From positions 480,001 to 544,000 of the forward strand of contig CAWFFN010000008.1 in assembly GCA_963815115.1 (NCBI GenBank): 64,000 nt of DNA. Reading direction: 5' to 3'. The stretch comes from an uncultured delta proteobacterium (GTDB lineage Bacteria > Desulfobacterota > Binatia > DP-6). Below the pieces are notes generated by a model that searched no databases, had not been told where the DNA came from, and worked only from the letters and a program-made list of their open reading frames with translations. Numbering within the stretch: position 1 is the stretch's first letter; each line of letters starts with the position of its first letter. The position numbers were made by a program, and so were the translations under genes. This document shows, in pieces, positions 6,739 through 58,530 of this stretch.

Positions 6739-9582
6739 ATGCTTCGGACGTTCCGGGCCGACTACGAGCGGCTGCTTCCGCAGGTCGAGAAGCCGGGCCG
6801 CTACCTGGGGAACGAGCGCGCCTCCGTCCGCAAGGACCCGTCCGCGGTGGCCGTCCGCTTCGCGCTCGCGTTTCCCGAGGTGTACGAGATCGCGCAGTCC
6901 CACCTCGGGCTGCAGATTCTCTACGACATCCTGAACCGCCGGCCCGACGTCGTGGCGGAACGCTGCTATGCACCCTGGGGCGACCTGGAGGCGTTGTTGC
7001 GAGCGCACGGCCTGCCGCTCGTCTCGCTCGAGAGCCACCTGGCCCTGCGCGACTTCCACATCGTCGGCTTCAGCCTGCAGTACGAGCTCACCTATGCGAA
7101 CCTGCTGACCATGCTCGAGCTGGGGGGCATCCCCCTGCGGGCGGCCGACCGCGGTGCCGACGATCCCGTGGTGATCGCCGGCGGCCCGTGCGCGTTCAAT
7201 CCCGAGCCGCTCGCGCCCTTCCTCGACGCCGTCGTGCTGGGCGACGGGGAGGAGGCCGTCGGGCAGGTGGTCGACGCGGTTCGCGAGCACCGCGACGGTG
7301 ACGGCGGTCGCACGGTCCTGCTGCGCGCGCTCGCCGCGCTGCCGGGTGTCTACGTGCCGGCGTTCTTCACACCCCGCTATCACGACGACGGCACCATCGC
7401 CGAGATCGTTCCGCTCGACCCCGCGCGCCCCGTCGTGGCGAAGCGCGTGCTCCCGGACCTCGACGCCTTCCCCCCGCCGACCAACCCCATCGTCCCCAAC
7501 CTCGGCGTGGTGCACGACCGCGCCAGCGTCGAGGTGATGCGCGGCTGCGTGAAGGGCTGCCGCTTCTGCCAGGCGGGCTACATCTACCGCCCCCTGCGCG
7601 AGCGGGACCCCGAGCGCGTGGTCGCCCACACCCACGAGCTGATGGCGCGCACCGGCTACGAGGAGGTGTCGCTGCTCTCGCTCTCGACGGGCGACTACAG
7701 CGGCGTCAATCCGGTGCTCAAGTCGCTCATGGACCGGCTCGCTCCCGAGCACGTCGCGGTGTCGCTGCCGTCGACACGCGTCGACGCGCTCTCGCCCCGC
7801 ATCCTCGAGGAGATCCGTCGCGTCCGGAAGACCGGCTTCACCCTCGCGCCCGAGGCCGGCACGCAGCGGCTGCGCGACGTCATCCAGAAGGAGTACCGCG
7901 AGGAGGAGCTGCTCGAGGCTGCCCGGCTGTTCGCGGAGCTCGGATGGCGGAGCCTCAAGCTCTACTTCATGATCGGGCTGCCCAGCGAGACCGAGGAAGA
8001 CGTGCTCGGCATCGCGGAGCTCGCCGGCCGGGTGAAGCGGGCGGCACGCGGCCGGCTGCGCGTGACGGCGAGCGTTTCCACGTTCTCGCCGAAGCCGCAC
8101 ACCCCGTTCCAGTGGGCCGCGCAGCTCGACGTCGAGGAGACCGAGGCGCGCCAGTCGCTGCTGCGGCGCGAGCTCGGCCGTCGCGGTGTCGAGTTTCGCT
8201 GGCACGACAGCCGGCTCTCGTGGCTCGAGGGCGTGTTCGCGCGCGGTGACCGGCGGCTGGCCGACGTCCTCGAGCGAGCGCAACGAGCAGGCGCCCGCTT
8301 CGACGGCTGGTCGGATCGCTGCCGGCCCGAGCTGTGGAGCGAGGCGCTCGCCGCCAGCGGGCTCGACCCCGAGTTCTACCTCCGCCGCCGCCCGCTCGGC
8401 GAGACGCTGCCGTGGAACCACCTCGACGCCGGGGTGAGCGCACGCTTCCTGCGCCAGGACCTGGCCCGTGCCGTGGAAGGCGTCCTCACGCCCGACTGCT
8501 CCATCGAGCGCTGCACGTACTGCGGCGCGTGCGACTTCGAGACCGTGCGCAACGTCGACTACCACCCATCGGGCGCGAAGGGCAGCGATCACCGCGGCGA
8601 ACGGGTCTCGCGCTGGGCGGAACTGGTCGTGCCACGGGCGGATGGCGACACCCTGCCCGAATGGGAGACCCGCACCTGGCGGCGCATCCGTACCGAGGTG
8701 GCAGCCCGCCGCGCGGCACGGCTGCCGGCGGCGCGCGCCACCCGCGCGGCCGACGCGGCGCCGCTGCCCGCCACGCTGGGTGCGCGGGGCGGAAGTGCGG
8801 CGAACGGCGCCGCGGCCGGCGGCGAGGGCAACGCCGAGGAGTGGCTCGGAGCCGTCCCCTCGTCGCTCGTGCCGGTCGCATCGGCGCCGGCGGCCGTGCA
8901 GCGGATCCGGTTCCGCTATCGCAAGGTCGGGCCGGCGCGCTTCATCGGGACGCGCGAGCTCACCACCGTGCTGGCACGGGCCGCACGCCGCGCTCGCTTG
9001 CCGGTGGCCTTCTCCCGCGGCCACCACCCCCTGCCGCGCCTGTCGTTCGGCCCCGCCCTCCCGCTCGGCGCCTCCAGCGAGGACGAGCTCTTCGACATCG
9101 ACCTCACGGTAGCGGTGGCGCCGCCCGAGGCGCTGGCGCGCCTCGGCGACGAGCTGCCGGAAGGCCTCGCGCTCCTCGGTGGCGTCGAGGTCCCGCGCTC
9201 GGCGCGCAGCATCGACGAGTCGGTGGCGGCATTCCGCTGGGAAGTCGACCTGGGCGAGCTGCCGCAGCGGCCCGAGCCACGGTCCGTCGCCGCCGCCGTG
9301 TCGCGGTTCCGCGGCGGCGCGCCCCTGCCCGTGTCCAAGCCGGGCAAGAGCGGCGAGCGCACGGTCGACGCCCGCGACACGATCACCGCCCTCGAGCAGC
9401 CCGGGCCCGAGCGGCTCGTCCTCGAGATCGCCGTCGGGCGCGACGGCACGCTCCGGCCGAGTGCGGTGGTCGGCGCGCTCCTCGGACTCGATGCCGCAAT
9501 GCTGCCCGCGCTTCGCGTCCACAAGCTGGCGACCCGATTCCGCGCTGCCCCCGATCCGAAGGCAGCCCCTGCGGCATCCTAG
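6739..9582 (+). CDS. TIGR03960 B12-binding-like radical SAM protein fused to TIGR03936/DUF2344 domain
   Basis: VEKPGRYLGNE, FSLQYE, RGCVKGCRFCQAG, APEAGTQRLR, PKPHTPFQW; C-terminal Y.K.G..RFI...FS.GHHP.PRLSFGPALPLG..SEDE; upstream of rng as usual. Confidence 0.9.
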   Translation: MLRTFRADYERLLPQVEKPGRYLGNERASVRKDPSAVAVRFALAFPEVYEIAQSHLGLQILYDILNRRPDVVAERCYAPWGDLEALLRAHGLPLVSLESHLALRDFHIVGFSLQYELTYANLLTMLELGGIPLRAADRGADDPVVIAGGPCAFNPEPLAPFLDAVVLGDGEEAVGQVVDAVREHRDGDGGRTVLLRALAALPGVYVPAFFTPRYHDDGTIAEIVPLDPARPVVAKRVLPDLDAFPPPTNPIVPNLGVVHDRASVEVMRGCVKGCRFCQAGYIYRPLRERDPERVVAHTHELMARTGYEEVSLLSLSTGDYSGVNPVLKSLMDRLAPEHVAVSLPSTRVDALSPRILEEIRRVRKTGFTLAPEAGTQRLRDVIQKEYREEELLEAARLFAELGWRSLKLYFMIGLPSETEEDVLGIAELAGRVKRAARGRLRVTASVSTFSPKPHTPFQWAAQLDVEETEARQSLLRRELGRRGVEFRWHDSRLSWLEGVFARGDRRLADVLERAQRAGARFDGWSDRCRPELWSEALAASGLDPEFYLRRRPLGETLPWNHLDAGVSARFLRQDLARAVEGVLTPDCSIERCTYCGACDFETVRNVDYHPSGAKGSDHRGERVSRWAELVVPRADGDTLPEWETRTWRRIRTEVAARRAARLPAARATRAADAAPLPATLGARGGSAANGAAAGGEGNAEEWLGAVPSSLVPVASAPAAVQRIRFRYRKVGPARFIGTRELTTVLARAARRARLPVAFSRGHHPLPRLSFGPALPLGASSEDELFDIDLTVAVAPPEALARLGDELPEGLALLGGVEVPRSARSIDESVAAFRWEVDLGELPQRPEPRSVAAAVSRFRGGAPLPVSKPGKSGERTVDARDTITALEQPGPERLVLEIAVGRDGTLRPSAVVGALLGLDAAMLPALRVHKLATRFRAAPDPKAAPAAS

Positions 9583-9588
9583 CGGCCG

Positions 9589-11127
9589 GTGGCGCAGCAG
9601 ATACTGATCAACGCGTCCGGATGGGAGACGCGGGTCGCCGTCCTCGACGAGACCGCGCTTCTCGAGCTGTACGTGGAGCGCGGACGCGAGCACGGCATCG
9701 CGGGAAACATCTACAAGGGCAAGGTGATCCGGGTGCTGCCCGGCATGCAGGCCGCCTTCGTCGACGTCGGGCTCGACAAGGCCGCGTTCCTGCACGTCTC
9801 GGATCTGGCCCCACCCGAGGAGCTGGCCGACAACGAGGTCGCCGAGGACCTGCTCGACGAAGGCGACGGCGCGGGGACGTGGGACGCCACCCCACCCGCC
9901 CGCGCCCCGGCGCCGCCCCTTCGCCCGATCGAGGAGCGGCTGTCGAAGGGGGCCGAGCTCATCGTGCAGGTGGCGAAGGAGCCCATCGGCAGCAAGGGGG
10001 CGCGGGTGACCGCCCGCATCTCGCTGCCCGGTCGCTATCTGGTCCTGACACCCGGCGCGCGGCACCTGGGCCTCTCACGCCGCATCGAGGACGTCGAGGA
10101 GCGCGAGCGGTTGCGGACGATCGTCGAGGCGGAGCGCCCCGCCGACGCCGGGCTCATCGTGCGCACCGCCTGCGAGGGCGCGACCAAGCGGGAGATTCGC
10201 GACGACGTGCGCTTCCTCACCCGGCTGTGGGCGCGAATCGGCAAGCTCGCGGCCAAGGAGACCGCGCCCGCCCTGATCCATCAGGACCTGGACCTCGTGC
10301 TGCGGACGGTGCGCGACCTCTTCACCAGCCACGTCGAGCGTCTGAGCATCGACGCCGCGGCGGACCACGCCCGGGTGCTCGAGTTCGTCCAGGCCACGAT
10401 GCCGCGCTTGGCATCGCGGGTGCATCACTACCAGGGCGTCACGCCGATCTTCGAGCAGCACGGCGTGGAGAGCAAGATCGCGCGCGCTCTCGAGCGCCGC
10501 GTGTGGCTCAAGTCGGGCGGGTATCTGGTCATCGAGCAGACCGAGTCGCTGACCGCCATCGACGTCAACACCGGCCGCTACGTCGGCAAGAAGAGTCAGG
10601 AAGAGACCGTCCTCCGCACCAACCTCGAAGCCGCGAAGCAGGTCGTCGCCCAGCTCCGCCTGCGCAACCTGGGCGGCATCATCGTCATCGACTTCATCGA
10701 CATGGAGGAGGCGGCGAATCGCAAGCAGGTCTTCGACCTCCTCCAGGAGTCCGTGCGCACCGACAAGGCGCGCACCAACATCCTGCGTATCTCGGAGCTC
10801 GGCCTGGTCCAGATGACCCGCAAGCGGACGCGCGAGAGCCTGGGACAGCTCCTGTCGAGCCCGTGCCCGCACTGCCAGGGCACGGGCCGGGTGCGATCGG
10901 TCGAGAGCCTCGCCGCGGATGCGCTGCGGCGTGCACAGCACGAAGCGGGCCTGCATCCCGGCACGACCGCCCTCGTGCTGCGGGTGCATCCCGAGGTGGC
11001 GGAGTTTCTCGGCGGACGGCGCGCGCAGAGCATCGGCGAGCTCGAGAGCCTGATCGGCCGCCCGCTCACCGTCGAGGGCGTGCCCGACCTGGGGCGCGGC
11101 GAGGTGGAGATCAGCCACGAGGTGTAG
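9589..11127 (+). CDS. rng: Ribonuclease G (Rne/Rng family)
   Basis: GNIYKGKV.RVLPGMQAAFVD, IDVNTG, LRNLGGIIVIDFIDM, CPHCQGTG. Confidence 0.95.
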   Translation: MAQQILINASGWETRVAVLDETALLELYVERGREHGIAGNIYKGKVIRVLPGMQAAFVDVGLDKAAFLHVSDLAPPEELADNEVAEDLLDEGDGAGTWDATPPARAPAPPLRPIEERLSKGAELIVQVAKEPIGSKGARVTARISLPGRYLVLTPGARHLGLSRRIEDVEERERLRTIVEAERPADAGLIVRTACEGATKREIRDDVRFLTRLWARIGKLAAKETAPALIHQDLDLVLRTVRDLFTSHVERLSIDAAADHARVLEFVQATMPRLASRVHHYQGVTPIFEQHGVESKIARALERRVWLKSGGYLVIEQTESLTAIDVNTGRYVGKKSQEETVLRTNLEAAKQVVAQLRLRNLGGIIVIDFIDMEEAANRKQVFDLLQESVRTDKARTNILRISELGLVQMTRKRTRESLGQLLSSPCPHCQGTGRVRSVESLAADALRRAQHEAGLHPGTTALVLRVHPEVAEFLGGRRAQSIGELESLIGRPLTVEGVPDLGRGEVEISHEV

Positions 11128-12259
11128 CCCGCACCCGGCGCGCAGCGCGGGGAGCGAAGGCGCGAAGCGGCAGGGCGGTGGTGCCGTCCAGGACGAGGTC
11201 GGCGACCGCCGCCGCGACGATCGGCGCGAGCAGGATGCCGCTGCGGTAGAGGCCGGTCGCGTAGAACAGCCCGGGCACGTCGGGTGCCGGCCCGAGGATC
11301 GGCAGCCCGTCGGGCGTGCCGGGGCGCAGCCCGGCGTAGGTGCGCTCCAGACTCGCCGCAGCCAGCCCGGGCGCCATGGCCACGGCCGCCGCCAGCAGCG
11401 CGGCCGCCGCCCCCATCGTCACGCGCTTCTCGAAGCCCGCGCGCTCCCGCGTGCTGCCGAGGAGCACGCGCCCGTCGAGCCGCGGGACGAGATACGCACG
11501 CCGGGAATAGAGCGGCAGCGCGAGGTCGTCGGGGGAGCCGCGCAGCACCAGCATCTGCCCGCGGACGGGGAACACGGGCGGCACGCTCGCGCCTGCAGGC
11601 ACGCCGACGTCCGCCGCCCATGCTCCCGCGGCGTTGACGGCGACGCGGGTCGCGATCGGGCCCTGATCGGTGATGACGGCGCTCAGACGCCCGCCGCGCG
11701 CCCGGACCGCCAGCGCCCCGGTGCGTTCGCGAACGACGACACCGGCGCGGCGCGCGGCGATCCCGGCGGCCACCGCCAGGCGCTCGTTGTTCACGCGATG
11801 GTCGTCCGGGAAGTGGACGGCGAGCCGGACGCGTGGAGCGAGCACCGGGGCGAGGCGGCGCGCGGCCCGCGGCAGGAGACGAGCCACCCGCAGGCCGAGA
11901 CGCTGCTGCCAGGCCGCGCGGGCGGCGAGCACGCGGGCGTCGGCCGCGTCGAGTGCCACGTAGAGGATGCCGTCGGTGCGGTACTCGACGTCGATGCCGC
12001 TCTCGGCCTGCAGGCACTCGACCCAGTCCGGGTACCGCCGCCGGCTCTCGAGCGCCAGGTGGAGCAGCGGCCCCGGTCGCTCGGTCTCCGCCTGCGGCGC
12101 CACCATGCCGGCTGCCGCCCGGCTCGCCTCGGCGCCGAGCTCGCCGCGTTCGACGAGCACGGTGCGCGCTCCGCGGCGCGCCAGCTCGCGTCCCAGGGCA
12201 CATCCGATCAGACCACCGCCGATCACGACGACGTCGGCCGTGCGCTCCCGGGCCGTCAT
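11111..12259 (-). CDS. thiO: Glycine oxidase ThiO-like FAD oxidoreductase
   Basis: VIGGGLIG, EASRAAAGM, PVRGQM, YLVPR.DGR, GLRPGTPD.LP.LG, ATGLYRSGILLAP; ATG at 12259. Confidence 0.85.
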   Translation of the reverse strand: MTARERTADVVVIGGGLIGCALGRELARRGARTVLVERGELGAEASRAAAGMVAPQAETERPGPLLHLALESRRRYPDWVECLQAESGIDVEYRTDGILYVALDAADARVLAARAAWQQRLGLRVARLLPRAARRLAPVLAPRVRLAVHFPDDHRVNNERLAVAAGIAARRAGVVVRERTGALAVRARGGRLSAVITDQGPIATRVAVNAAGAWAADVGVPAGASVPPVFPVRGQMLVLRGSPDDLALPLYSRRAYLVPRLDGRVLLGSTRERAGFEKRVTMGAAAALLAAAVAMAPGLAAASLERTYAGLRPGTPDGLPILGPAPDVPGLFYATGLYRSGILLAPIVAAAVADLVLDGTTALPLRAFAPRAARRVRATPRG

Positions 12260-12286
12260 GCGGTGCAAGGACCGCCGCCAGGCGGG

Positions 12287-12420
12287 CGACTCGAGATTCC
12301 GTCTCGGATCGACACGGAGGGCGAGATTGAGGCTTGCTGGACAGTGCGGCACGGATCCGCCCGATCCACCGAACGCCGCACGCTCGCCTCGCTTTCGCCC
12401 CGAGACGGAGTCTCGGGGCG
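12287..12420. repeat. REPIN/MITE-like palindromic element, copy 2 (short form, ~134 bp)
   Basis: Left CGAGATTCCGTCTCGG followed by GGAGGGCGAG; right CGCCCCGAGAC-GGA-GTCTCGGGGCG; lies between def and thiO. Confidence 0.8.
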
Positions 12421-50026: not shown

Positions 50027-50859
50027 TGCGCACCGCGCTCCTGGGCGCCGCCGCCGCGGCACTGTTCGCGATCGTGCTCGGGCTGAGCTTCCCGACCGAT
50101 CAGCTGGTCCGGTGGGGTCTGGCCAGGGCCCCCGTGCCCGAGGCGCGCCTCATCACCTTCCGGCGTGCCCACCTGCGACCGTGGGGACTCGTGCTCGAAG
50201 GCGCGAGCCTGCGGGATCCCGGCGGCGGACCGCTCTACGAGGCCGACTGGCTGCGCTTCCGTCCCTCGTGGACCGCGCTCGCCGGCGATCCGCTGGGACG
50301 CCCCTGGCGGGTCGCGGCCAGCGCGCTCGGCGGCACGATCGATGCCAGCCTCGGCCTCGACGGCGGCGCCCAGATCGTCGAGCTCGCCTGGGCCGATCTC
50401 GACGTCGGTCGCCTGCTGGCAGCGCTGCGCCGCCGGGACCAGCTCTCCGGCCGTGCGAGCGGCAGCAGCGGGCTGCGGGTACCGGGGACTGATGCGGCCA
50501 CCGGCTCCGGTGAGGTGGTCCTGCAGGACGCCGTGTGGCAGCCAGCGCTCGGCGCGCTCGAGGACCTCCCGCTGCATGCCGAGCGTGCCACGCTGCGCTG
50601 GACGCTCGCCGGTGGTCGCCTCGAGGTGGCGGCCTTCGACGTGCACGGACAGGAGATGAACGTGGCGGCCAGCGGCCAGGTCCGCCTCGCCGACGTTGCG
50701 GACGCGAGCACGCTCGATCTCCGGGTGACCCTCACGCCGCTCCCCGGCATGCCCGGCAAGCTGCGCCCGCTGCTCGACGGCTTGCCGCGCGGCGCCAACG
50801 GTACGCGCGACTTCGTCCTCACGGGAACTCTGGATGCGCCTCGCATCACGCCGCCGTAG
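50026..50859 (+). CDS. gspN: Type II secretion protein N
   Basis: TM followed by FP, beta-rich body, C-terminal L.GTL.AP. Confidence 0.75.
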   Translation: MRTALLGAAAAALFAIVLGLSFPTDQLVRWGLARAPVPEARLITFRRAHLRPWGLVLEGASLRDPGGGPLYEADWLRFRPSWTALAGDPLGRPWRVAASALGGTIDASLGLDGGAQIVELAWADLDVGRLLAALRRRDQLSGRASGSSGLRVPGTDAATGSGEVVLQDAVWQPALGALEDLPLHAERATLRWTLAGGRLEVAAFDVHGQEMNVAASGQVRLADVADASTLDLRVTLTPLPGMPGKLRPLLDGLPRGANGTRDFVLTGTLDAPRITPP

Positions 50860-51202
50860 CAGCCGGGGCCTCGGGCTCCTGGAAGTCCTCGTGGCGCTCG
50901 TCGTCCTCGCGGTCGGCGTGACGGCCATGCAGCGCCTCGTGACCCGGAGCGTGGGCACGCTCGGAGAGGACCTGCGCCTGACGCGCGCGATGCTGGCGGC
51001 GCAGGCGCTGCTGGCGGAGGCGGCCCTCGCGCCACCCGAGCCGGGCGAGACGAACGGCAGCACCCCCGAGGGGCTGCGCTTCGAGCGCGCCGTCGCCCGC
51101 ACCCCCCATCCCGCCCTGCGCGAGATCCGCGTCCGGGTGTGGCCCGACGCCGGCGCCGCACCGTGCGAGCTCCTGGAGGTGGTTCATGTACCGCCGGCGT
51201 GA
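50834..51202 (+). CDS. gspI: Minor pseudopilin I
   Basis: GLGLLEVLVAL prepilin-like motif; 122 aa; L.EI.V.V. Confidence 0.75.
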   Translation: MRLASRRRSSRGLGLLEVLVALVVLAVGVTAMQRLVTRSVGTLGEDLRLTRAMLAAQALLAEAALAPPEPGETNGSTPEGLRFERAVARTPHPALREIRVRVWPDAGAAPCELLEVVHVPPA

Positions 51203-52082
51203 GCGCGGATTCGCGCTCCTCGGCGCCGTCATGGCCCTCTCCGCCCTCTCGCTGGTCGCGATGGGCCTGGCAACCGCTGCCGCCGTGGACCGGCGGCGGA
51301 CGGCCGATGCCATGGAGGGGCTGCAGGCGGACGCGCTGGTGCGCTCGGCGATCGCCACGGCGTCGGTCCTGCTCGCCGAGCAGGCTCGCGTGGGGGAGCC
51401 CGACACGCTGCGCGCTCCCTGGGCACATCGGTTCGGCCGCCAGGCGGTCGGCCCCGGCTGGGTGGAGGTCACCGTGGAGGACGAGACGCGCCGGCTCGAC
51501 CTGAATGCACCCGGAAGCGCGGTCGCCCTTCCCCGGCTGCTGCGCCGCCTCGGCCTCGACCCCGCGCTCGCCGACGCCGTCGCCGACTGGACCGACGCCG
51601 ACGACGAGGCGCGGCCTCACGGGGCCGAGCGGGCATGGTACCGGCGGCAGAAGCCGCCGGTCGAGCCGCCCAACGCGCCGCTCGCGAGCGTCGGCGAGCT
51701 CGCGCTGCTGCGCGGCGCGGAGCCCGCGATGGTCGAGCGCCTGCGCCCGTTCGTCAGCGTCGCGGGCGAGGCACGCATCAACCCCAACACCGCCTCGCCC
51801 GAGGTCCTGGAGGCGTGGCTGGGCGATCCGCAGCGCGCCCAGGACATCCTCGCCCAGCGGGCCGCCGACGTCCTGGTGCCATGTGACGATCTGCCGCCGT
51901 GCACGCTGCACGCGCAGCACTACCTGGTGCGGGCGCTCGCGGGCGCGGGCCGCACGCGGCGTCGGGTCGAGGCGCTGGTGTGGGTCGCCGGGGGCGAGCC
52001 GCGCACGACGGCCTGGCGCCAGATTACGGCGCCCCGAGACTCCGTCTCGGGGCGGACGGAGAGCGAGAGTGGAACACGGTGA
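51186..52082 (+). CDS. gspK: Minor pseudopilin K
   Basis: RGFALL, DE...LDLN, DW.D.D.....GAE..WY, EL.LLRG, INPNTA; C-terminal tail comes from the repeat. Confidence 0.88.
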   Translation: MYRRRERGFALLGAVMALSALSLVAMGLATAAAVDRRRTADAMEGLQADALVRSAIATASVLLAEQARVGEPDTLRAPWAHRFGRQAVGPGWVEVTVEDETRRLDLNAPGSAVALPRLLRRLGLDPALADAVADWTDADDEARPHGAERAWYRRQKPPVEPPNAPLASVGELALLRGAEPAMVERLRPFVSVAGEARINPNTASPEVLEAWLGDPQRAQDILAQRAADVLVPCDDLPPCTLHAQHYLVRALAGAGRTRRRVEALVWVAGGEPRTTAWRQITAPRDSVSGRTESESGTR

Positions 52083-52302: not shown

Positions 52303-53583
52303 TTAGGCGCCTCGCAGCGCCGGCAGCCCGAAGCGCTCGCGCAGGACGCGCAGCAGGGCCGCGTTGTCGGAGTGTCCCGTCTTGCGCGCCACGACCCGAC
52401 CCCGGATGGGACGTCCGAGGAGGTAGAAGTCGCCCAGCACGTCGAGGATCTTGTGGCGCACGAACTCGTCCGGGAAGCGCAGGGGGGCGTTCACCACCCC
52501 TTCGTCGCCGACCAGGATGAAGTTGTTCAGGCGACCCCCGTTCGCCAGCCCCATCTCCTCCAGGGTCTCGATCTCCTTGACGAACCCGAAGGTCCGGGCG
52601 GGCGCGATCTCGCGCCGGAAGGTGGCCGCGTCGGAGAGCCGGAAATCGTACTCCTGATGGCCGATCGGCGGCGGATATTCGAGCGTGTAGTGGACCTCGA
52701 AGCGATCCGCGGGCTCGATGCTGATGCCCTTCTCCTGCTGATCGTCGCCCACCGCGTAGCGCCGGTCGATCACGAGCTCGTCGACCGTCTCGGGCTGCTC
52801 GACCACGCCGCCTTCCTCCAGGAGCGCGCACAGCTCGGCGGCCGACCCGTCGAGCGCCGGCACCTCCGCGTGCATCTTCACCAGCAGGTTGGTGATGCCG
52901 TGCGCGTGGAGCGCCGCCATCAGATGCTCGACGGTCTTGGCGACCATGCCGCCGCGGACCAGCGTGGTGGCGTACCCGGTCGAGGCGACGTGATCGATCA
53001 AGGCGGGGACGATCTCGCCGCTCGCGATGCTCTCGAAGACGATGCCGCTCCCGGGGGGCAGCGGCTGCAGGATGATGCCCGTCCGCACTCCGGAGTGGAG
53101 GCCCTGGCCGTTCACCACCACGCCCCGCCGGATGGTCCGCTGCGGCAGCCGCCGCGGCAGAGCGAGGCTGGGCATGGAGCCGGTGGCACCAGCCGCCACC
53201 GATGCACTCGGGGGCGAGAGGCGCTCGTCGAGCGCACGGCCCACGACGCGCAGGAGCGCGTCGAGCTGGAAGGGCTTCTCGAGGAAATCGAAGGCGCCGT
53301 CGCGGATCACTCGCACGGCGGTCTCGATGGTGCCGTGTCCCGAGATCACGATGATGGGCACGCCGGGCGCCTGCGTCCGCATCTGCTGGACCAGCTCGAT
53401 GCCGTCCATCTCGGGCATCCAGATGTCCACGATGGCGAGCCGGGGCTCCTGCTGCGCGAGCACGTCGAGCGCGATACGGCCGTTCTCGGCCTCGACGACG
53501 TCGAAGCCCTCGTCGGAGAGCACCCCGCGCAGCGTGTTCCGGATCTGTGCCTCGTCGTCCACCACCAAGATCGTCTCCGCCAT
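52303..53583 (-). CDS. lpxC: Receiver (REC) domain fused to UDP-3-O-acyl-GlcNAc deacetylase LpxC
   Basis: aa 1-120 REC (VDDE, D53 in DIWMP, ISGHG, FLEKP); aa ~148-426 LpxC (QRTI...G.GLHSG, TVEHLMAAL, EVPALDGSA, ARTFGF, HKILD..GD, GH..N); SD GAGGAGG. Confidence 0.92.
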   Translation of the reverse strand: MAETILVVDDEAQIRNTLRGVLSDEGFDVVEAENGRIALDVLAQQEPRLAIVDIWMPEMDGIELVQQMRTQAPGVPIIVISGHGTIETAVRVIRDGAFDFLEKPFQLDALLRVVGRALDERLSPPSASVAAGATGSMPSLALPRRLPQRTIRRGVVVNGQGLHSGVRTGIILQPLPPGSGIVFESIASGEIVPALIDHVASTGYATTLVRGGMVAKTVEHLMAALHAHGITNLLVKMHAEVPALDGSAAELCALLEEGGVVEQPETVDELVIDRRYAVGDDQQEKGISIEPADRFEVHYTLEYPPPIGHQEYDFRLSDAATFRREIAPARTFGFVKEIETLEEMGLANGGRLNNFILVGDEGVVNAPLRFPDEFVRHKILDVLGDFYLLGRPIRGRVVARKTGHSDNAALLRVLRERFGLPALRGA

Positions 53584-53592
53584 AACCCCTCC

Positions 53593-55868
53593 TCAGGATC
53601 CGTACGCGCCGAGGCGCGCGCGCGCCACCAGCTGAGCCGGCTGGCTCCGGACCGGGAACTCGAGAATGAATCGCGTGCCGCGCGGCAGGTTGTCGCGGAC
53701 GCGGATGAAGCCCTTGTGATCGGCGACGATCGTCGAGACGATCGACAGCCCCAGTCCCGTTCCGTCCGGCTTGGTCGAGAAATACGGCTCGAAGAGCCGC
53801 GTGCGTGCTTCCGCCGTCATGCCGATGCCGTCGTCGGCGATCTCGAGCCGCACGACGCCGAGCCGCGCGTCGTGCGCCGTCCGCAGCTCCACGCGTCGGC
53901 GCTCGTCGGGTCTGCTCCTCGGACGGGCCGCACAGGCGGCGACCGCGTTGTCGAGGATGTTGATGACCGCGCGCTTCATGCCCTCGCGATCGAGCTCGAG
54001 CAGCGGCAGCTCCGCTTCCGCCTCGAGGACGAAGTCGATGGTGGGATGCCCCTCCCGGAAGAGCACCAGGGCCTCCTCGACGACGCGGTTCAGGTCGTGC
54101 GGCCGGTGCTCCGCCTGCGGCATCCGCGCGAAGGTCGAGAACTCGTTCACCAGCGCCTTCAGCTCCTCGACCTGCTGGATGATGGTGCGGGTGCACTCGT
54201 CGAACACGGCCCCGTCCTGGCGGAGCTGGCCGCCGTAGCGGCGGCGCAGGCGTTGGGCCGCGAGCTGGATCGGCGTGAGCGGATTCTTGATCTCGTGAGC
54301 GATGCGGCGCGCGACCTCGCGCCAGGCTTCCATGCGCTCGACGCGCAGCAGGTAGGTGACGTCCTCGAGGAACAGGACGACGCCCTGCGCCTGTCCGGCC
54401 TCGTCCTGGAGACCGGTGCCCGCGAGCAAGGCCGCCACCTCGGCGCCGTCCCCGCGCACCAGCGTGAGCTGGCGCTCGAGCGTCCCCCGCTGGCCAGCAG
54501 CTCGGCCAGCGCCGGCCGGAGCTCCGCGTGCGCCTCGCCCGCGAACAGGTCACCCAGCGGGCGGCCCACGGCCGCGGTGGCATCAAGACCGAGCAGCTCT
54601 GCCGCCCCGCGGTTGAGCGTGGTCACGCGACCGCGCGGGTCGGCGGAGATGACGCCGGCGGTGATGTTGGCGAGCACGATCTCCAGGTCGCGGCGGCGCG
54701 CATCGAGCTCCGTGCGGCTGGTCTTCAGGTCCGCCGTCATGTGGTTGAACGCCGTCACCAGCGTCCCGATCTCGTCGTCCCCCTGGCCGGGGATGTACTG
54801 GTCGAGGTCGCCCTGGGCGACGGCCCGCGTGCCCTCCGCGAGCTTCTGGATCGGCACCGTGATGCCGCGGGCGACGTAGAATCCCACCCAGGTGGCGGAG
54901 AAGAGGATGACGACCGTGACCAGGACGAGCGTGATCGTGTAGGCGGTGCGGATCGGACGGCGCTGCACCTTGAGCCGCAGGTACTCGCCGAAGGAGCGGT
55001 CGATCTCCTCGCGGCGCTTGACCACGCTCCGCGGCACGTAGTCGTCGACCACGACCACCCCGGTGACGTGACCGTCGTGCTGGATCGGGGCGGCCGCGCG
55101 GATGACGTCGGCCTCGCCCACCGCGTCGACGCCGGTGGCTTCCTCACCGGTGGACGCGCGCCGGACCACGTCGGACCACGCTTCCACGCCGACCTTGCCG
55201 GAGAGATCCGGACGACGGGCGCGAGCAAGGGTCTGCCCGTCGGCGAACACCTCCATCAGGTCGATCTGGTACTCCGTCCGGCGCTGGGCGAGAAACCCCT
55301 TGAGCGCGGGGCGGCGCTCGGGCTCGAGAAGCCGGTTCTGCTCGAGCTGGGCCGCGGTCTCGCGGGCGAACCCGAGCGAGGTGTCCGCGAGATCCTCGTA
55401 GTAGGCGTGCGCGACGTCGAGCGATCCCTCGAGGGCACGCTCCACCTGCCCGTTGAACCAGTCCTCGATCGAGTTGCTCAGGAACACCTGCGCCACCAGG
55501 AAGAGCAGCGTCGCTGGCAGGATGGCGATGCCGACGAAGGCGACCACCAGCCGGGTGCGCAGGTGCGAGCCCATGATGCGCCGCCGGCGGTCGAGGATGA
55601 GCTTCACGATGTTGCGGCCCACCAGGAAGACCAGGAGGACGAGCAGGATGAGGTTCAGGTTGATGAGCAGGACGAGGACCGCGTCCGTGCCGAGGGAGCC
55701 GCGGCCCGCGAACTGCGGAAGGCGCGTCTCGACGAGCGCGAAGGCGACCACCGCGAGCGCCGTCGCCAGGATGATGAAACCCTCGCGCCGTCGCCTGCGG
55801 ACGTCGGCCTGCTGCGCCGTGTTGGACGCTGGCGCCATCACGGGCGCCTGGTCGGGCCGGTCCGGCAT
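53593..55868 (-). CDS. ntrY: NtrY-like sensor histidine kinase, interrupted by a 1-nt frameshift near 54484-54488
   Basis: TMs-periplasmic-HAMP-PAS in ORF 54159..55907; EVARRIAHEIKNPLTPIQL and FEPYFSTK..GTGLGL in ORF 53593..54459; adding one base to the 5-nt run joins them as ...ASGGTLERQLTLVRGDG... Confidence 0.85.
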
Positions 55869-55878
55869 GAACGCGCCG

Positions 55879-55907
55879 ATGATAGGGGCGTCCGGATGCG
55901 AAGGCAA
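55879..55907 (-). promoter_or_regulatory. Sigma70 promoter of the kinase / REC-LpxC operon
   Basis: TTGCCT-N17-TATCAT, 10 nt before ATG 55868. Confidence 0.6.
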
Positions 55908-55952: not shown

Positions 55953-56168
55953 CTAGCGCCGAAAGAAGAGATTCAACAGGATGGTCAGCACGATGCTCAC
56001 CACCAGCGAGGTGGCGATCGGCACGTAGAAGGTGAAGCGCTCGCGCTCCACGACGATGTCGCCGGGGAGCCGCCCGAGCCAGGGAATGCGCGGCAGAAGC
56101 AGCAGGACGGCGCCGGCGACGATCGCGGCGACGCCGAAGAGGACGAGGAGCCGTCCGACGCCGGCCAT
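55953..56168 (-). CDS. DUF2905 small membrane protein
   Basis: LGRLPGDI......F.FY.PI.TS...S..LT. Confidence 0.88.
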   Translation of the reverse strand: MAGVGRLLVLFGVAAIVAGAVLLLLPRIPWLGRLPGDIVVERERFTFYVPIATSLVVSIVLTILLNLFFRR

Positions 56169-56220
56169 GGCTCCGCCTTGCCATCGGCCGGGGACTGCGG
56201 CAAGCCCGGCGGGAGCCCAT

Positions 56221-56247
56221 CGTAACCTTTCGCCCCCGCCGGACGTG
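56221..56247 (+). promoter_or_regulatory. Candidate ECF sigma promoter
   Basis: GTAACC-N16-CGTG upstream of the oxidoreductase-ECF operon. Confidence 0.4.
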
Positions 56248-56285: not shown

Positions 56286-57596
56286 ATGCAGCGAACGACC
56301 GGTGACGACACGATCGTGGTGGTGGGCGGCGGCCTGTGCGGGCTCACCGCGGCCGCCTTTCTCGCCCGCTCCGGATGCGCCGTGACGGTGCTCGAGCGCG
56401 CCGCCTCCGCCGGCGGCCGGGCCGTCACCAGGCGAAGCGCCGGGTTTGCCCTGAACCTGGGACCGCACGCGCTCTACCGCGGCGGCCACGGTATTCGCGT
56501 GCTCGACGAGCTCGGCGTGGCACATCCGGGCGGCACGCCGAAGGCGTCCGGCGCCTGCGCCATCGACCGCGGCGCGATGCACGGCCTCCCGGGCGGGTTC
56601 GTCTCCCTCCTGACGACAGGACTCTTCGGTCTCTCCGCCAAGCTCGAGACCGGGCGGTTGCTCGGCGGCATCGCCCGCATCGACGCCGGCGCCCTGAATC
56701 ACACCTCGGTTCGCGACTGGGTCGATGCACGCGTGCGCCATCCCGACGTCCGCCGTCTCGTGCACGCGCTCGTCCGTCTCGCCACCTACGCCGACGCGCC
56801 CGACACCATGAGCGCCGGGCTCGCGATTGGGCAGCTCCAGATGGCGCTGGCGAGCAACGTCAGCTACCTCGACGGCGGCTGGCAAACGCTGGTCGACGGG
56901 ATGCGCGCGCGCGCCGAGGAAGCCGGCGCCCGGGTCCGGACCGCGGCGGCCGTGACCGCCGTCGAGCGCAGCGCCGACGGTACCGCCATCGGCGTGCGCC
57001 TGCGCGACGGCGAGCTCGTCGGGGCAGGCGCCGTCGTGCTCGCGCTCGACGCTCCGGCGGCCGCCGAGGTGCTACCCGACGGTCCCGCACGCCGGCGTGC
57101 CGCGACGGCGGTCCCGGTGCTCGCCGGTTGCCTGGACGTGGCGCTGTCACGCCTGCCGCGGCCGCAGGCGACCTTCGCGCTCGGCATCGACCGGCCGCTC
57201 TACTTCTCCGTGCACTCGGCGGTGGCACGGCTCGCGCCCGAGGGCGGGGCGCTCATCCACGTCGGGCAGTACCTGGGGGACGGCGCGCAGGAGCCCGAGA
57301 TGGTCGAGCGCCAGCTCGAGGACGCGCTCGACCGCATGCAGCCGGGGTGGCGCGCGCACGTCGTGGAGCGGCGCTTCCTGCCGCGCATGGTCGCGGTGAG
57401 CGCGCTCGCGACCGCCGCCGAGGGCGGCCTCGCCGGACGCCCCGGCGCCGAAGTCCCCGAGGCACCCGGCCTCTACCTGGCCGGCGACTGGGTGGGGCCG
57501 GACGGCTGGCTGGTGGATGCCAGCCTGGCGAGCGCCCGCCACGCCGCGGCGCTCGCCGCCCGACGCGTGGGCCGACGGGCCGCTGCGGCCGCGTGA
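56286..57596 (+). CDS. FAD-dependent oxidoreductase (phytoene desaturase/amine oxidase-like)
   Basis: VVGGGLCGL, LER....GGRA, NLGPHALY, YLDGGWQ, LAGDWVG. Confidence 0.85.
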   Translation: MQRTTGDDTIVVVGGGLCGLTAAAFLARSGCAVTVLERAASAGGRAVTRRSAGFALNLGPHALYRGGHGIRVLDELGVAHPGGTPKASGACAIDRGAMHGLPGGFVSLLTTGLFGLSAKLETGRLLGGIARIDAGALNHTSVRDWVDARVRHPDVRRLVHALVRLATYADAPDTMSAGLAIGQLQMALASNVSYLDGGWQTLVDGMRARAEEAGARVRTAAAVTAVERSADGTAIGVRLRDGELVGAGAVVLALDAPAAAEVLPDGPARRRAATAVPVLAGCLDVALSRLPRPQATFALGIDRPLYFSVHSAVARLAPEGGALIHVGQYLGDGAQEPEMVERQLEDALDRMQPGWRAHVVERRFLPRMVAVSALATAAEGGLAGRPGAEVPEAPGLYLAGDWVGPDGWLVDASLASARHAAALAARRVGRRAAAAA

Positions 57597-57603
57597 GAGC
57601 GCG

Positions 57604-58530
57604 GTGAGCGCGAGCCCCGTCGTCCTCGGCACCGCATTCCGGGCCCACGAGCGCCCGCTCTGGAACCTCTGCTACCGCATGACGGGCGTTGCCGCCGACG
57701 CCGACGATCTCGTGCAGGAGACCTTCCTGCGCGCCATCGAGCGGCCTCCCGCTCGAACCGACACCGATCTGCGACCCTGGCTCGTGCACGTCGCCATGAA
57801 CCTCGCCCGCGATCTCCTGCGGCGGCGGCGCCGGCACGCGCAGCCGGGACCGTGGCTGCCCTCGCCGATCGAGACCGGCGAGGACGCGTCGCCCGCCTAC
57901 GAGCCGTCGCGGACCGAGGGGCGCTACGACCTCCTCGAGAGCTGCACCTTCGCCTTCCTGCTCGCCCTCGAAGCGCTCACGCCGCAGCAGCGCGCCGTGC
58001 TCCTCCTGCGCGACGTGTTCGACTACTCCGTCGAGCAGACCGCGACGGCGCTCGATCTCTCCGCCGCCAACGTCAAGACGACGCATCACCGCGCGCGCCG
58101 CTCCATGGCGGCATACGACACGAGCCGGCGGCCGCCGACGAAGGACCTGCAGGCCGAGACGCTCCGCGTGCTCGGCGAGTTCCTGCGTGCCCTGGCGCAG
58201 GGCGACGCGGCCGCCGTCGAGGCGACCCTCGCGAGCGACGTCCGCACCCTCACCGACGGCGGCGCCTTCCATGCGGCGCGCAAGCCGATCGTCGGGCGCG
58301 AGCGCGTTGCCCATTTCTACTGCCGTCTGTTCGAGCTCGGGGGCCGCGGCGCGCAGGTGTCGGTGCGGATGCTGAACGGCCTGCCCGCACTCGTCTTCGA
58401 CGCCGGACATGCGAGGCCCGGCTACCCGCCGCGCGGAATCATCCGCATCGACCTGGGCGACGACGGCGAGGTCCGCACGATCCACAGCGTGCTCGCCACG
58501 CCCAAGTTGACCGCCGTCCGCTTCCCCTGA
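57604..58530 (+). CDS. ECF41-like sigma factor with SnoaL-like C-terminal extension
   Basis: YRMTG..ADADD.VQE.F, GPWLPSP, LE.L...QRAV.LLRDVF, TDGG, PKL. Confidence 0.85.
   Translation: MSASPVVLGTAFRAHERPLWNLCYRMTGVAADADDLVQETFLRAIERPPARTDTDLRPWLVHVAMNLARDLLRRRRRHAQPGPWLPSPIETGEDASPAYEPSRTEGRYDLLESCTFAFLLALEALTPQQRAVLLLRDVFDYSVEQTATALDLSAANVKTTHHRARRSMAAYDTSRRPPTKDLQAETLRVLGEFLRALAQGDAAAVEATLASDVRTLTDGGAFHAARKPIVGRERVAHFYCRLFELGGRGAQVSVRMLNGLPALVFDAGHARPGYPPRGIIRIDLGDDGEVRTIHSVLATPKLTAVRFP

Follow-up and report, generated by a model that had tools for sequence, protein, structure and literature searches.

In the window analyzed here, a 64,000-nucleotide stretch of contig CAWFFN010000008.1 (assembly GCA_963815115.1) from an uncultured delta proteobacterium of the class Binatia, we found a gene that joins a response regulator receiver domain (REC) to the deacetylase LpxC in one protein chain. 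The receiver is intact, it is tethered to the sole LpxC of the genome, whose set of catalytic residues is complete, and the fusion is co-inherited with an NtrY-type kinase. LpxC catalyzes the committed, flux-setting step of the synthesis of lipid A and lipopolysaccharide (LPS) and is a leading antibiotic target. We consider it moderately likely that kinase and fusion form a two-component pair of NtrX–LpxC ancestry, in which an NtrX-type receiver on a flexible tether of LpxC would place the enzyme under the control of phosphorylation. The genome that carries the window (G000) comprises 6.9 Mb on 12 contigs and is 100% complete, and the G+C content of the region holding the fusion and the kinase is about 70%.

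The REC–LpxC Fusion and Its Product

The fusion gene occupies positions 52303..53583 of the minus strand, stop codon counted in, and was delimited by its open reading frame together with Pfam and NCBIfam matches. The original prediction, made from the nucleotide sequence, had described a single frame across both domains, and indeed the 426 codons run uninterrupted without internal stops. The product begins with a receiver domain (residues 5–113, 53245..53571; PF00072, E = 1.8e-31), continues with a linker of about 27 amino acids rich in Ser, Ala, and Pro (residues ~119–145, 53149..53229), for which the AF2 model predicts disorder, and ends with an LpxC deacetylase domain (residues 148–414, 52342..53142; PF03331, E = 1.9e-81), all on the minus strand. 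The LpxC half scored 274 bits against PF03331 (cut-off 27) and 228.3 bits against TIGR00325, the NCBIfam equivalog of lpxC (cut-off 187.25), and it aligned to the solved LpxC structure 7phn_A with E = 8.8e-49, the TVEH and HKILD motifs being identical. NF009667, the model of the LpxC–FabZ fusion, matched the same half at 200.9 bits and below its cut-off of 465. Residues E219, H220, H377, D381, D385, and H404, which we take to be the zinc-ligand and catalytic set by comparison with the LpxC of Escherichia coli and Pseudomonas aeruginosa, were all present, as were T331 and K378.

The receiver half was equally complete. The acidic pair D9/D10, the phospho-acceptor D53, and the switch residues S81 and K103 were found in the PF00072 domain, and every motif that had been quoted from the translation was recovered: DD at 9–10, D53 within VDIWMP, S81, K103, TVEH at 217–220, ARTF at 329–332, HKILD at 377–381, and GH at 403–404. 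The assignment of the receiver to the NtrX type also held, NtrX being the top NCBIfam response-regulator family (137.6 bits), ahead of AtoC (107) and NtrC (103); the closest solved structures were 4d6x and 5m7n. The 137.6 bits to the full NtrX model NF051870 come from residues 3–120 only, that is, from the receiver, and lie below the cut-off of 600 bits. By these matches the window protein appears to be a derivative of NtrX and not a member of the NtrX family. An AF2 model computed with 68 fusion sequences as input reached a mean pLDDT of 87.2 and a pTM of 0.81, with pLDDT below 50 confined to residues 122–139 and the last four residues, and thus predicts two folded domains joined by a disordered tether. 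The linker holds an in-frame ATG (M137), which was not conserved across 23 orthologues. The continuity of the gene across the linker was examined with contigs from sequencing runs, and those of three runs (X1, X2, and X5) bridge the junction: an identical X1 contig of 537 nt covers 52799–53335, an identical X2 contig covers 53171–53402, and an X5 contig, 94% alike, is gapless over 52450–53290.

Distribution and Conservation

Searching G000 for LpxC gave a single match, the fusion itself, which is thus the only lpxC found in the genome. The fused gene was likewise the only LpxC copy in 44 of 47 other fusion-bearing genomes; two of the rest (G034 and G199) contain an additional plain LpxC, and the two matches in G074 are contig-end fragments. 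From these sequences the fusion appears to be the housekeeping LpxC enzyme, with a predicted deacetylase activity.

The distribution of the architecture was investigated in 61 genomes of the window's class and 201 genomes of its phylum. A match spanning both REC and LpxC was present in 58 of the 61 class genomes; of the remaining three, one is cut at a contig end, one matches from residue 120 only, and one (78% complete) is matchless. Across the phylum a fused LpxC occurred in 48 of the 201 genomes, 34 of them with the short form seen in the window and 14 with a long form described below (one long form, that of G074, is inferred from a contig-split gene). The remaining 153 phylum genomes were inspected individually in part, and the other matches listed for the phylum were LpxC only, with open frames of 281–393 amino acids. 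Both PF03331 and PF00072 were found in the best 120 of 7887 database matches (75–97% identical; JGI, ENA, NCBI, and Logan). Several of these 120 were labelled Candidatus Binatia, and the names given to them by the public sources referred only to LpxC (UDP-3-O-acyl-GlcNAc deacetylase), many being nameless. Moreover, 17 clusters of at least 50 members with the REC–LpxC architecture were found in the ESM Atlas, the commonest labels being Candidatus Binatota and Myxococcota. A locus search of genome contigs returned mostly plain LpxC, the fusions among the matches listed being L032 (short) and L033 (long). The fusion thus recurs in the class, the phylum, and the databases, is common in metagenomes, and is not unique to this assembly.

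Residue conservation was counted in 68 short fusions, with identities down to 31%. The receiver set D9/D10/D53/S81/K103 was kept in 66–68 of them, D10, S81, and K103 in all 68 and D53 in 67. All 68 kept E219, H220, H377, D381, D385, and H404.

The NtrY-Type Kinase Gene

G000 contains one NtrY_N-type kinase, and it adjoins the fusion. Whether the fusion always lies next to such a kinase received a divided answer: in 56 of the 61 class genomes the kinase is directly upstream on the same strand, whereas most other fusion lineages show no linkage. Of the five class genomes that depart from this pattern, two gave no NtrY_N match, one gave no fusion match, and in two the genes sit on separate contigs. 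Outside the class, adjacency was found in G162 and in 6 of the 14 long-form loci, and was absent in the other short-form loci examined. Exactly one NtrY_N kinase was detected in 42 of the 47 fusion genomes. None of the 15 loci with an unlinked kinase (one of which has only 0.6 kb downstream) has a receiver or AAA+ gene after the kinase, and an orphan kinase together with an orphan NtrX-type receiver fits a cognate pair. A search for a canonical NtrX elsewhere in G000 gave at least 13 full-length matches of the REC-AAA+-HTH (helix-turn-helix) type, all 30–33% identical to the NtrX part of the long form, among which none stands out.

The kinase domains NtrY_N, HAMP, PAS, HisKA, and HATPase_c (Pfam) are all present in the window, divided between two reading frames. 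The claim of an NtrY-type kinase gene was therefore borne out as to type, by the NtrY_N match and by relatives that JGI names NtrY, and not as to its being one open frame in this assembly. The N-terminal part (NtrY_N, HAMP, and the start of PAS) lies at 54486..55868 on the minus strand, begins with the ATG at 55868, and holds the only NtrY_N match of G000. The C-terminal part (the end of PAS, HisKA with AHEIKNPLTPIQL, and HATPase_c) lies in another frame at 53593..54477 on the same strand. The N-terminal frame turns to nonsense past ...AELLASG, and the C-terminal frame resumes at TLERQLTLV. P0271, an intact relative of 771 amino acids, is 90% identical to the window over its residues 1–471 and 94% over residues 476–771 and shows no further breaks. 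Because P0271 reads LLASGGTLERQ across the break, one base appears to be missing from the run of five G at 54484..54488 (minus strand), the site of the frame switch, where relatives encode Gly-Gly-Thr. The X5 contig (94% alike) has one additional base behind 54486.

In six relatives the kinase forms a single stop-free frame, and among the best 120 kinase homologues most of those from JGI, ENA, and NCBI are 725–784 amino acids long. Truncated homologues in this set concentrate in one data source, designated src (14 of 15, at 367–691 amino acids, vs. 2 of 105 from other sources), which suggests frequent indel errors in that source. Open kinase frames of ~740–880 amino acids or longer also occur in other class genomes, including G213 of the same genus; those of G232 and G250 are shorter. 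Since the relatives are intact, we regard the break in the window as quite probably a one-base assembly error.

The kinases of relatives start with MPD or MPE, which corresponds to the ATG at 55868. The start formerly placed at the TTG at 55907 has to be given up, as that TTG is the -35 hexamer of a promoter-like site and the true start is likely the ATG at 55868. The promoter that had been proposed was found again as a sigma70-like match, TTGCCT-17-TATCAT, at 55879..55907 (minus strand), one such site against 0.2 in shuffled sequences; it is a match to the consensus only. Should this be a genuine promoter, only 10 nt would separate the end of its -10 hexamer from the ATG, and the kinase mRNA would be nearly leaderless. 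The tight spacing and the Shine-Dalgarno sequence claimed for the fusion gene are also present: the TGA of the kinase is followed by the 9-nt spacer GGAGGGGTT (53584..53592, minus strand), which is Shine-Dalgarno-like, and then by the ATG of the fusion. The arrangement TGA-GGGAGG-ATG was also found in G143 and G110.

Long Forms and the Origin of the Fusion

NtrX usually has the layout REC-AAA+-HTH. In lineages related to that of the window, we found proteins of 685–743 amino acids composed of Response_reg, Sigma54_activat, AAA_lid_14, and LpxC; these long forms are encoded at loci L136–L148 and L033. Residues 4–454 of one such protein aligned to residues 4–453 of 5m7n (E = 3.8e-78), the C-terminal helix-turn-helix included, and the GAFTGA segment is missing from both and present in NtrC1, the next match. 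The structure 5m7n is the NtrX of Brucella abortus, according to the part of PMC10535256 used here. This end-to-end alignment of REC-Sigma54_activat-AAA_lid-LpxC proteins with NtrX supports the proposal that LpxC took the place of the transcription-factor output of an NtrX regulator. Partial forms exist as well: P0126 is a REC-HTH_8-LpxC protein of 491 amino acids, in P0123 and P0135 the AAA+ domain has decayed, and L146–L148 are without HTH.

A quick maximum-likelihood tree was computed from 89 LpxC domains, 48 of them fused (34 short and 14 long) and 41 plain. All 48 fused domains formed one clade (SH-aLRT 99) on a long stem (1.02), and the 41 plain LpxCs, including copies from the same phylum and those of G034 and G199, fell outside it. 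Because the fused LpxCs group together to the exclusion of the plain ones, a single origin of the fusion is well supported by the sequences. The family would have begun as a full NtrX regulator (REC-AAA+-HTH) fused to LpxC, and the lineage of the window would later have shed AAA+ and HTH, leaving REC-linker-LpxC. We consider this direction, from long to short form by way of repeated internal deletions, likely, because the long form is a complete and collinear NtrX, the partial forms are graded, and the linkers differ among short clades (25–65 amino acids). The long forms may act as trigger enzymes, uniting DNA binding and catalysis in one protein.

A link between plain lpxC and ntrYX was found in other phyla. 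Of 78 loci with a plain lpxC, 8 have a gene for an NtrY-like kinase downstream of it and in the same orientation, and 6 of these 8 continue with an NtrX-like receiver. The record titles assign these loci to Rokuibacteriota, Thermoanaerobaculia, Acidoferrum, Desulfobacteraceae, Desulfonema, Geopsychrobacteraceae, and a "Deltaproteobacteria" MAG; ntrY also follows the plain second lpxC copies of G034 and G199. Loci with lpxC-ntrY(-ntrX) are L045, L049, L051, L053, L059, L065, L082, and L090 (at ~8000–12400 in each), as well as L194 and L195. The order lpxC-ntrY-ntrX differs from that of the fused operon, in which ntrY precedes ntrX::lpxC. Given these two gene orders, the fusion could have arisen by way of a tandem duplication. 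In the part of PMC7240162 drawn on here, deletion of ntrYX in Rhodobacter sphaeroides raised lpxC mRNA 8.8-fold and increased LPS, and no NtrX site was reported at lpxC. Section 10 of a 2025 review (PMC12444477) likewise describes NtrYX as an inhibitor of lpxC transcription in R. sphaeroides and Caulobacter crescentus.

Proposed Mechanism and Alternative Explanations

In the reading that we prefer, the membrane kinase NtrY would sense an envelope or redox cue and phosphorylate D53. The receiver would then switch its partner and either dock onto the LpxC domain or pair up with another receiver; deacetylase activity, hence LPS flux, would thereby be raised or lowered without a transcription step. 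We infer phosphotransfer, an effect on the enzyme, and the sign of this effect, and the switching of lipid A flux is purely conjectural. Gating of activity is preferred over control of stability because of the analogy with CheB-type gating or receiver pairing. A lowering of LPS flux upon phosphorylation would be weakly favored, since NtrYX represses lpxC in alphaproteobacteria.

A number of observations weigh against this two-component reading. In this assembly the two parts of the kinase lie in different frames, and none of the identical contigs covers the site of the break; run X1, which may represent the source sample, gives zero cover at 54360–54722. Most fusions outside the class do not adjoin a kinase, and no NtrY_N match was found in 5 of the 47 fusion genomes. 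The linkers of orthologues differ in both sequence and length (the gap between REC and LpxC being 25–65 amino acids) and share no conserved coupling element, and in one of the 68 fusions D53 is replaced by N. As for the ancestry, the class short forms are basal in the quick tree and the long forms nested, which taken literally means a change from short to long, and a hidden Markov model of the long-form HTH region detected no HTH remnant in short-form linkers (all E >0.5).

Several of these points would suit a Rosetta-stone fusion that serves only co-expression or co-localization, with a receiver that no longer signals and a kinase that in the window is a true pseudogene of a decaying system: the frameshift, the unlinked kinases of many lineages, the genomes in which NtrY_N was not found, and the unconserved linker. 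We nevertheless judge this explanation improbable, as the phospho-acceptor set is kept in 67–68 of the 68 fusions down to 31% identity, which is unexpected for an idle domain. Moreover, apart from the single missing base the kinase is 90–94% identical to its intact 771-amino-acid relative, other class genomes, that of the same-genus G213 among them, have open kinase frames, and the concentration of truncations in src points to an error-prone data source. Another explanation, that assembly or gene calling joined a receiver gene to lpxC, has one point in its favor, the metagenome-type assembly with at least one indel. It is refuted by the same in-frame fusion in the 58 class genomes, the best 120 of 7887 database matches, the 17 ESM Atlas clusters, and the junction-bridging contigs of three runs. 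The class genomes, the database matches, and the bridging contigs rule out an assembly artefact as the origin of the fusion.

The main alternative to activity gating is that the receiver sets the lifetime of LpxC, phosphorylation exposing or hiding a degradation signal or recruiting a protease, in place of the FtsH/LapB route and in the manner of RssB and CpdR. According to the portion of PMC12444477 on which we rely, proteolysis is the main control of LpxC in E. coli, and a role of Lon has been suggested in some alphaproteobacteria. A LapB equivalent was not detected in G000, where the best score was 44.8 bits against a cut-off of 363; NF008757 gave scores at the TPR level only, and PF18073 was unspecific, matching 10 of 14 control genomes, with RadA as its top match. 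The lack of a detected LapB would leave room for a different route of LpxC control, though the test is weak, and a flexible, variable tether is equally compatible with gating and with the role of a degron or adaptor. Against this stand the facts that no degron is identifiable from the sequence, that the absence of LapB rests on an E. coli-type model only, and that the nearest relatives of the receiver are transcription factors, not adaptors. Control of stability seems rather unlikely to us, and we retain phosphorylation-controlled activity of the tethered enzyme as the preferred explanation.

Comparison with Known Systems

Response regulators with enzyme outputs are known; they include CheB (a receiver joined to a methylesterase), PleD and WspR, and RpfG, and in CheB the receiver gates the esterase. 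To our knowledge, all known control of LpxC works through separate regulators or proteases, and in E. coli the enzyme is controlled by FtsH/LapB/YejM proteolysis. The REC–LpxC protein resembles CheB in having receiver, flexible linker, and catalytic domain in one chain, for which gating by phosphorylation would be expected; it differs in that LpxC as an output domain is undescribed in the literature found, and its gating interface is putative. Compared with the NtrY/NtrX systems of B. abortus, R. sphaeroides, and C. crescentus, the window kinase has the NtrY layout, the window receiver is closest to NtrX, and the long forms match NtrX over its whole length; moreover, a connection of NtrYX with lpxC and LPS levels is already on record in alphaproteobacteria. 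In contrast, the output of the window protein is the LpxC enzyme, AAA+ and HTH are gone from it, and the alphaproteobacterial link to lpxC works at the level of transcription and is reportedly indirect. In the bifunctional LpxC–FabZ protein (NF009667), too, LpxC occurs naturally fused to another domain. This is a metabolic fusion with a C-terminal fatty-acid dehydratase, whereas the fusion protein of the window has a signalling domain at its N-terminus. The E. coli system (FtsH/LapB/YejM) and the other LpxC regulators reviewed in PMC12444477 act through separate proteins and proteolysis, whereas here the signalling domain is inside the enzyme.

No paper describing a receiver–LpxC or NtrX–LpxC protein was found in the literature searched, the coverage of which leaves out most subscription journals, and the words "fusion" and "receiver" are absent from the part of the 2025 review PMC12444477 used here. 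While enzyme-output response regulators as such are known, LpxC as the output and the NtrX–LpxC series appear to be new.

Neighboring Genes and Other Observations

Type II secretion pseudopilin genes (T2SSI, and T2SSK with T2SSK_1st) lie at 50834–52082 on the plus strand, convergent with the fusion gene and ending ~220 nt from its 3' end. Just upstream of the kinase promoter region, at 55953–56222 on the minus strand and thus on the same strand as the kinase, there is a gene for a small DUF2905 membrane protein. There are also two plus-strand genes, one for a flavin amine-oxidase/phytoene-desaturase-like oxidoreductase (56286–57596) and one for an ECF-type sigma factor (57517–58530), the listed open reading frame of which overlaps the end of the oxidoreductase gene. 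The receiver similarity search also brought up P0225, an unrelated protein of 1217 amino acids with three receivers, several 4Fe-4S domains, and an FAD/NAD-binding domain.

Possible Implications for LPS Control and NtrYX Function

The physiological signal and the core regulon of NtrYX are disputed. We see an even balance for and against the proposition that REC–LpxC is a previously undescribed form of post-translational LPS control, class-wide as the only LpxC, and that the central task of NtrYX, long debated, is the homeostasis of LPS and the envelope, as would be implied by the series from lpxC-ntrY-ntrX clusters through NtrX–LpxC to REC–LpxC. If this is true, the receiver inside LpxC would represent a form of control that is both novel and simple. 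The fusions provide a natural record that ties NtrYX to LpxC across phyla and, with it, a concrete hypothesis for the function of NtrYX. Their carriers are uncultured soil bacteria (Candidatus Binatia or Binatota in public records), for which the REC–LpxC protein would offer a first handle on envelope biology.

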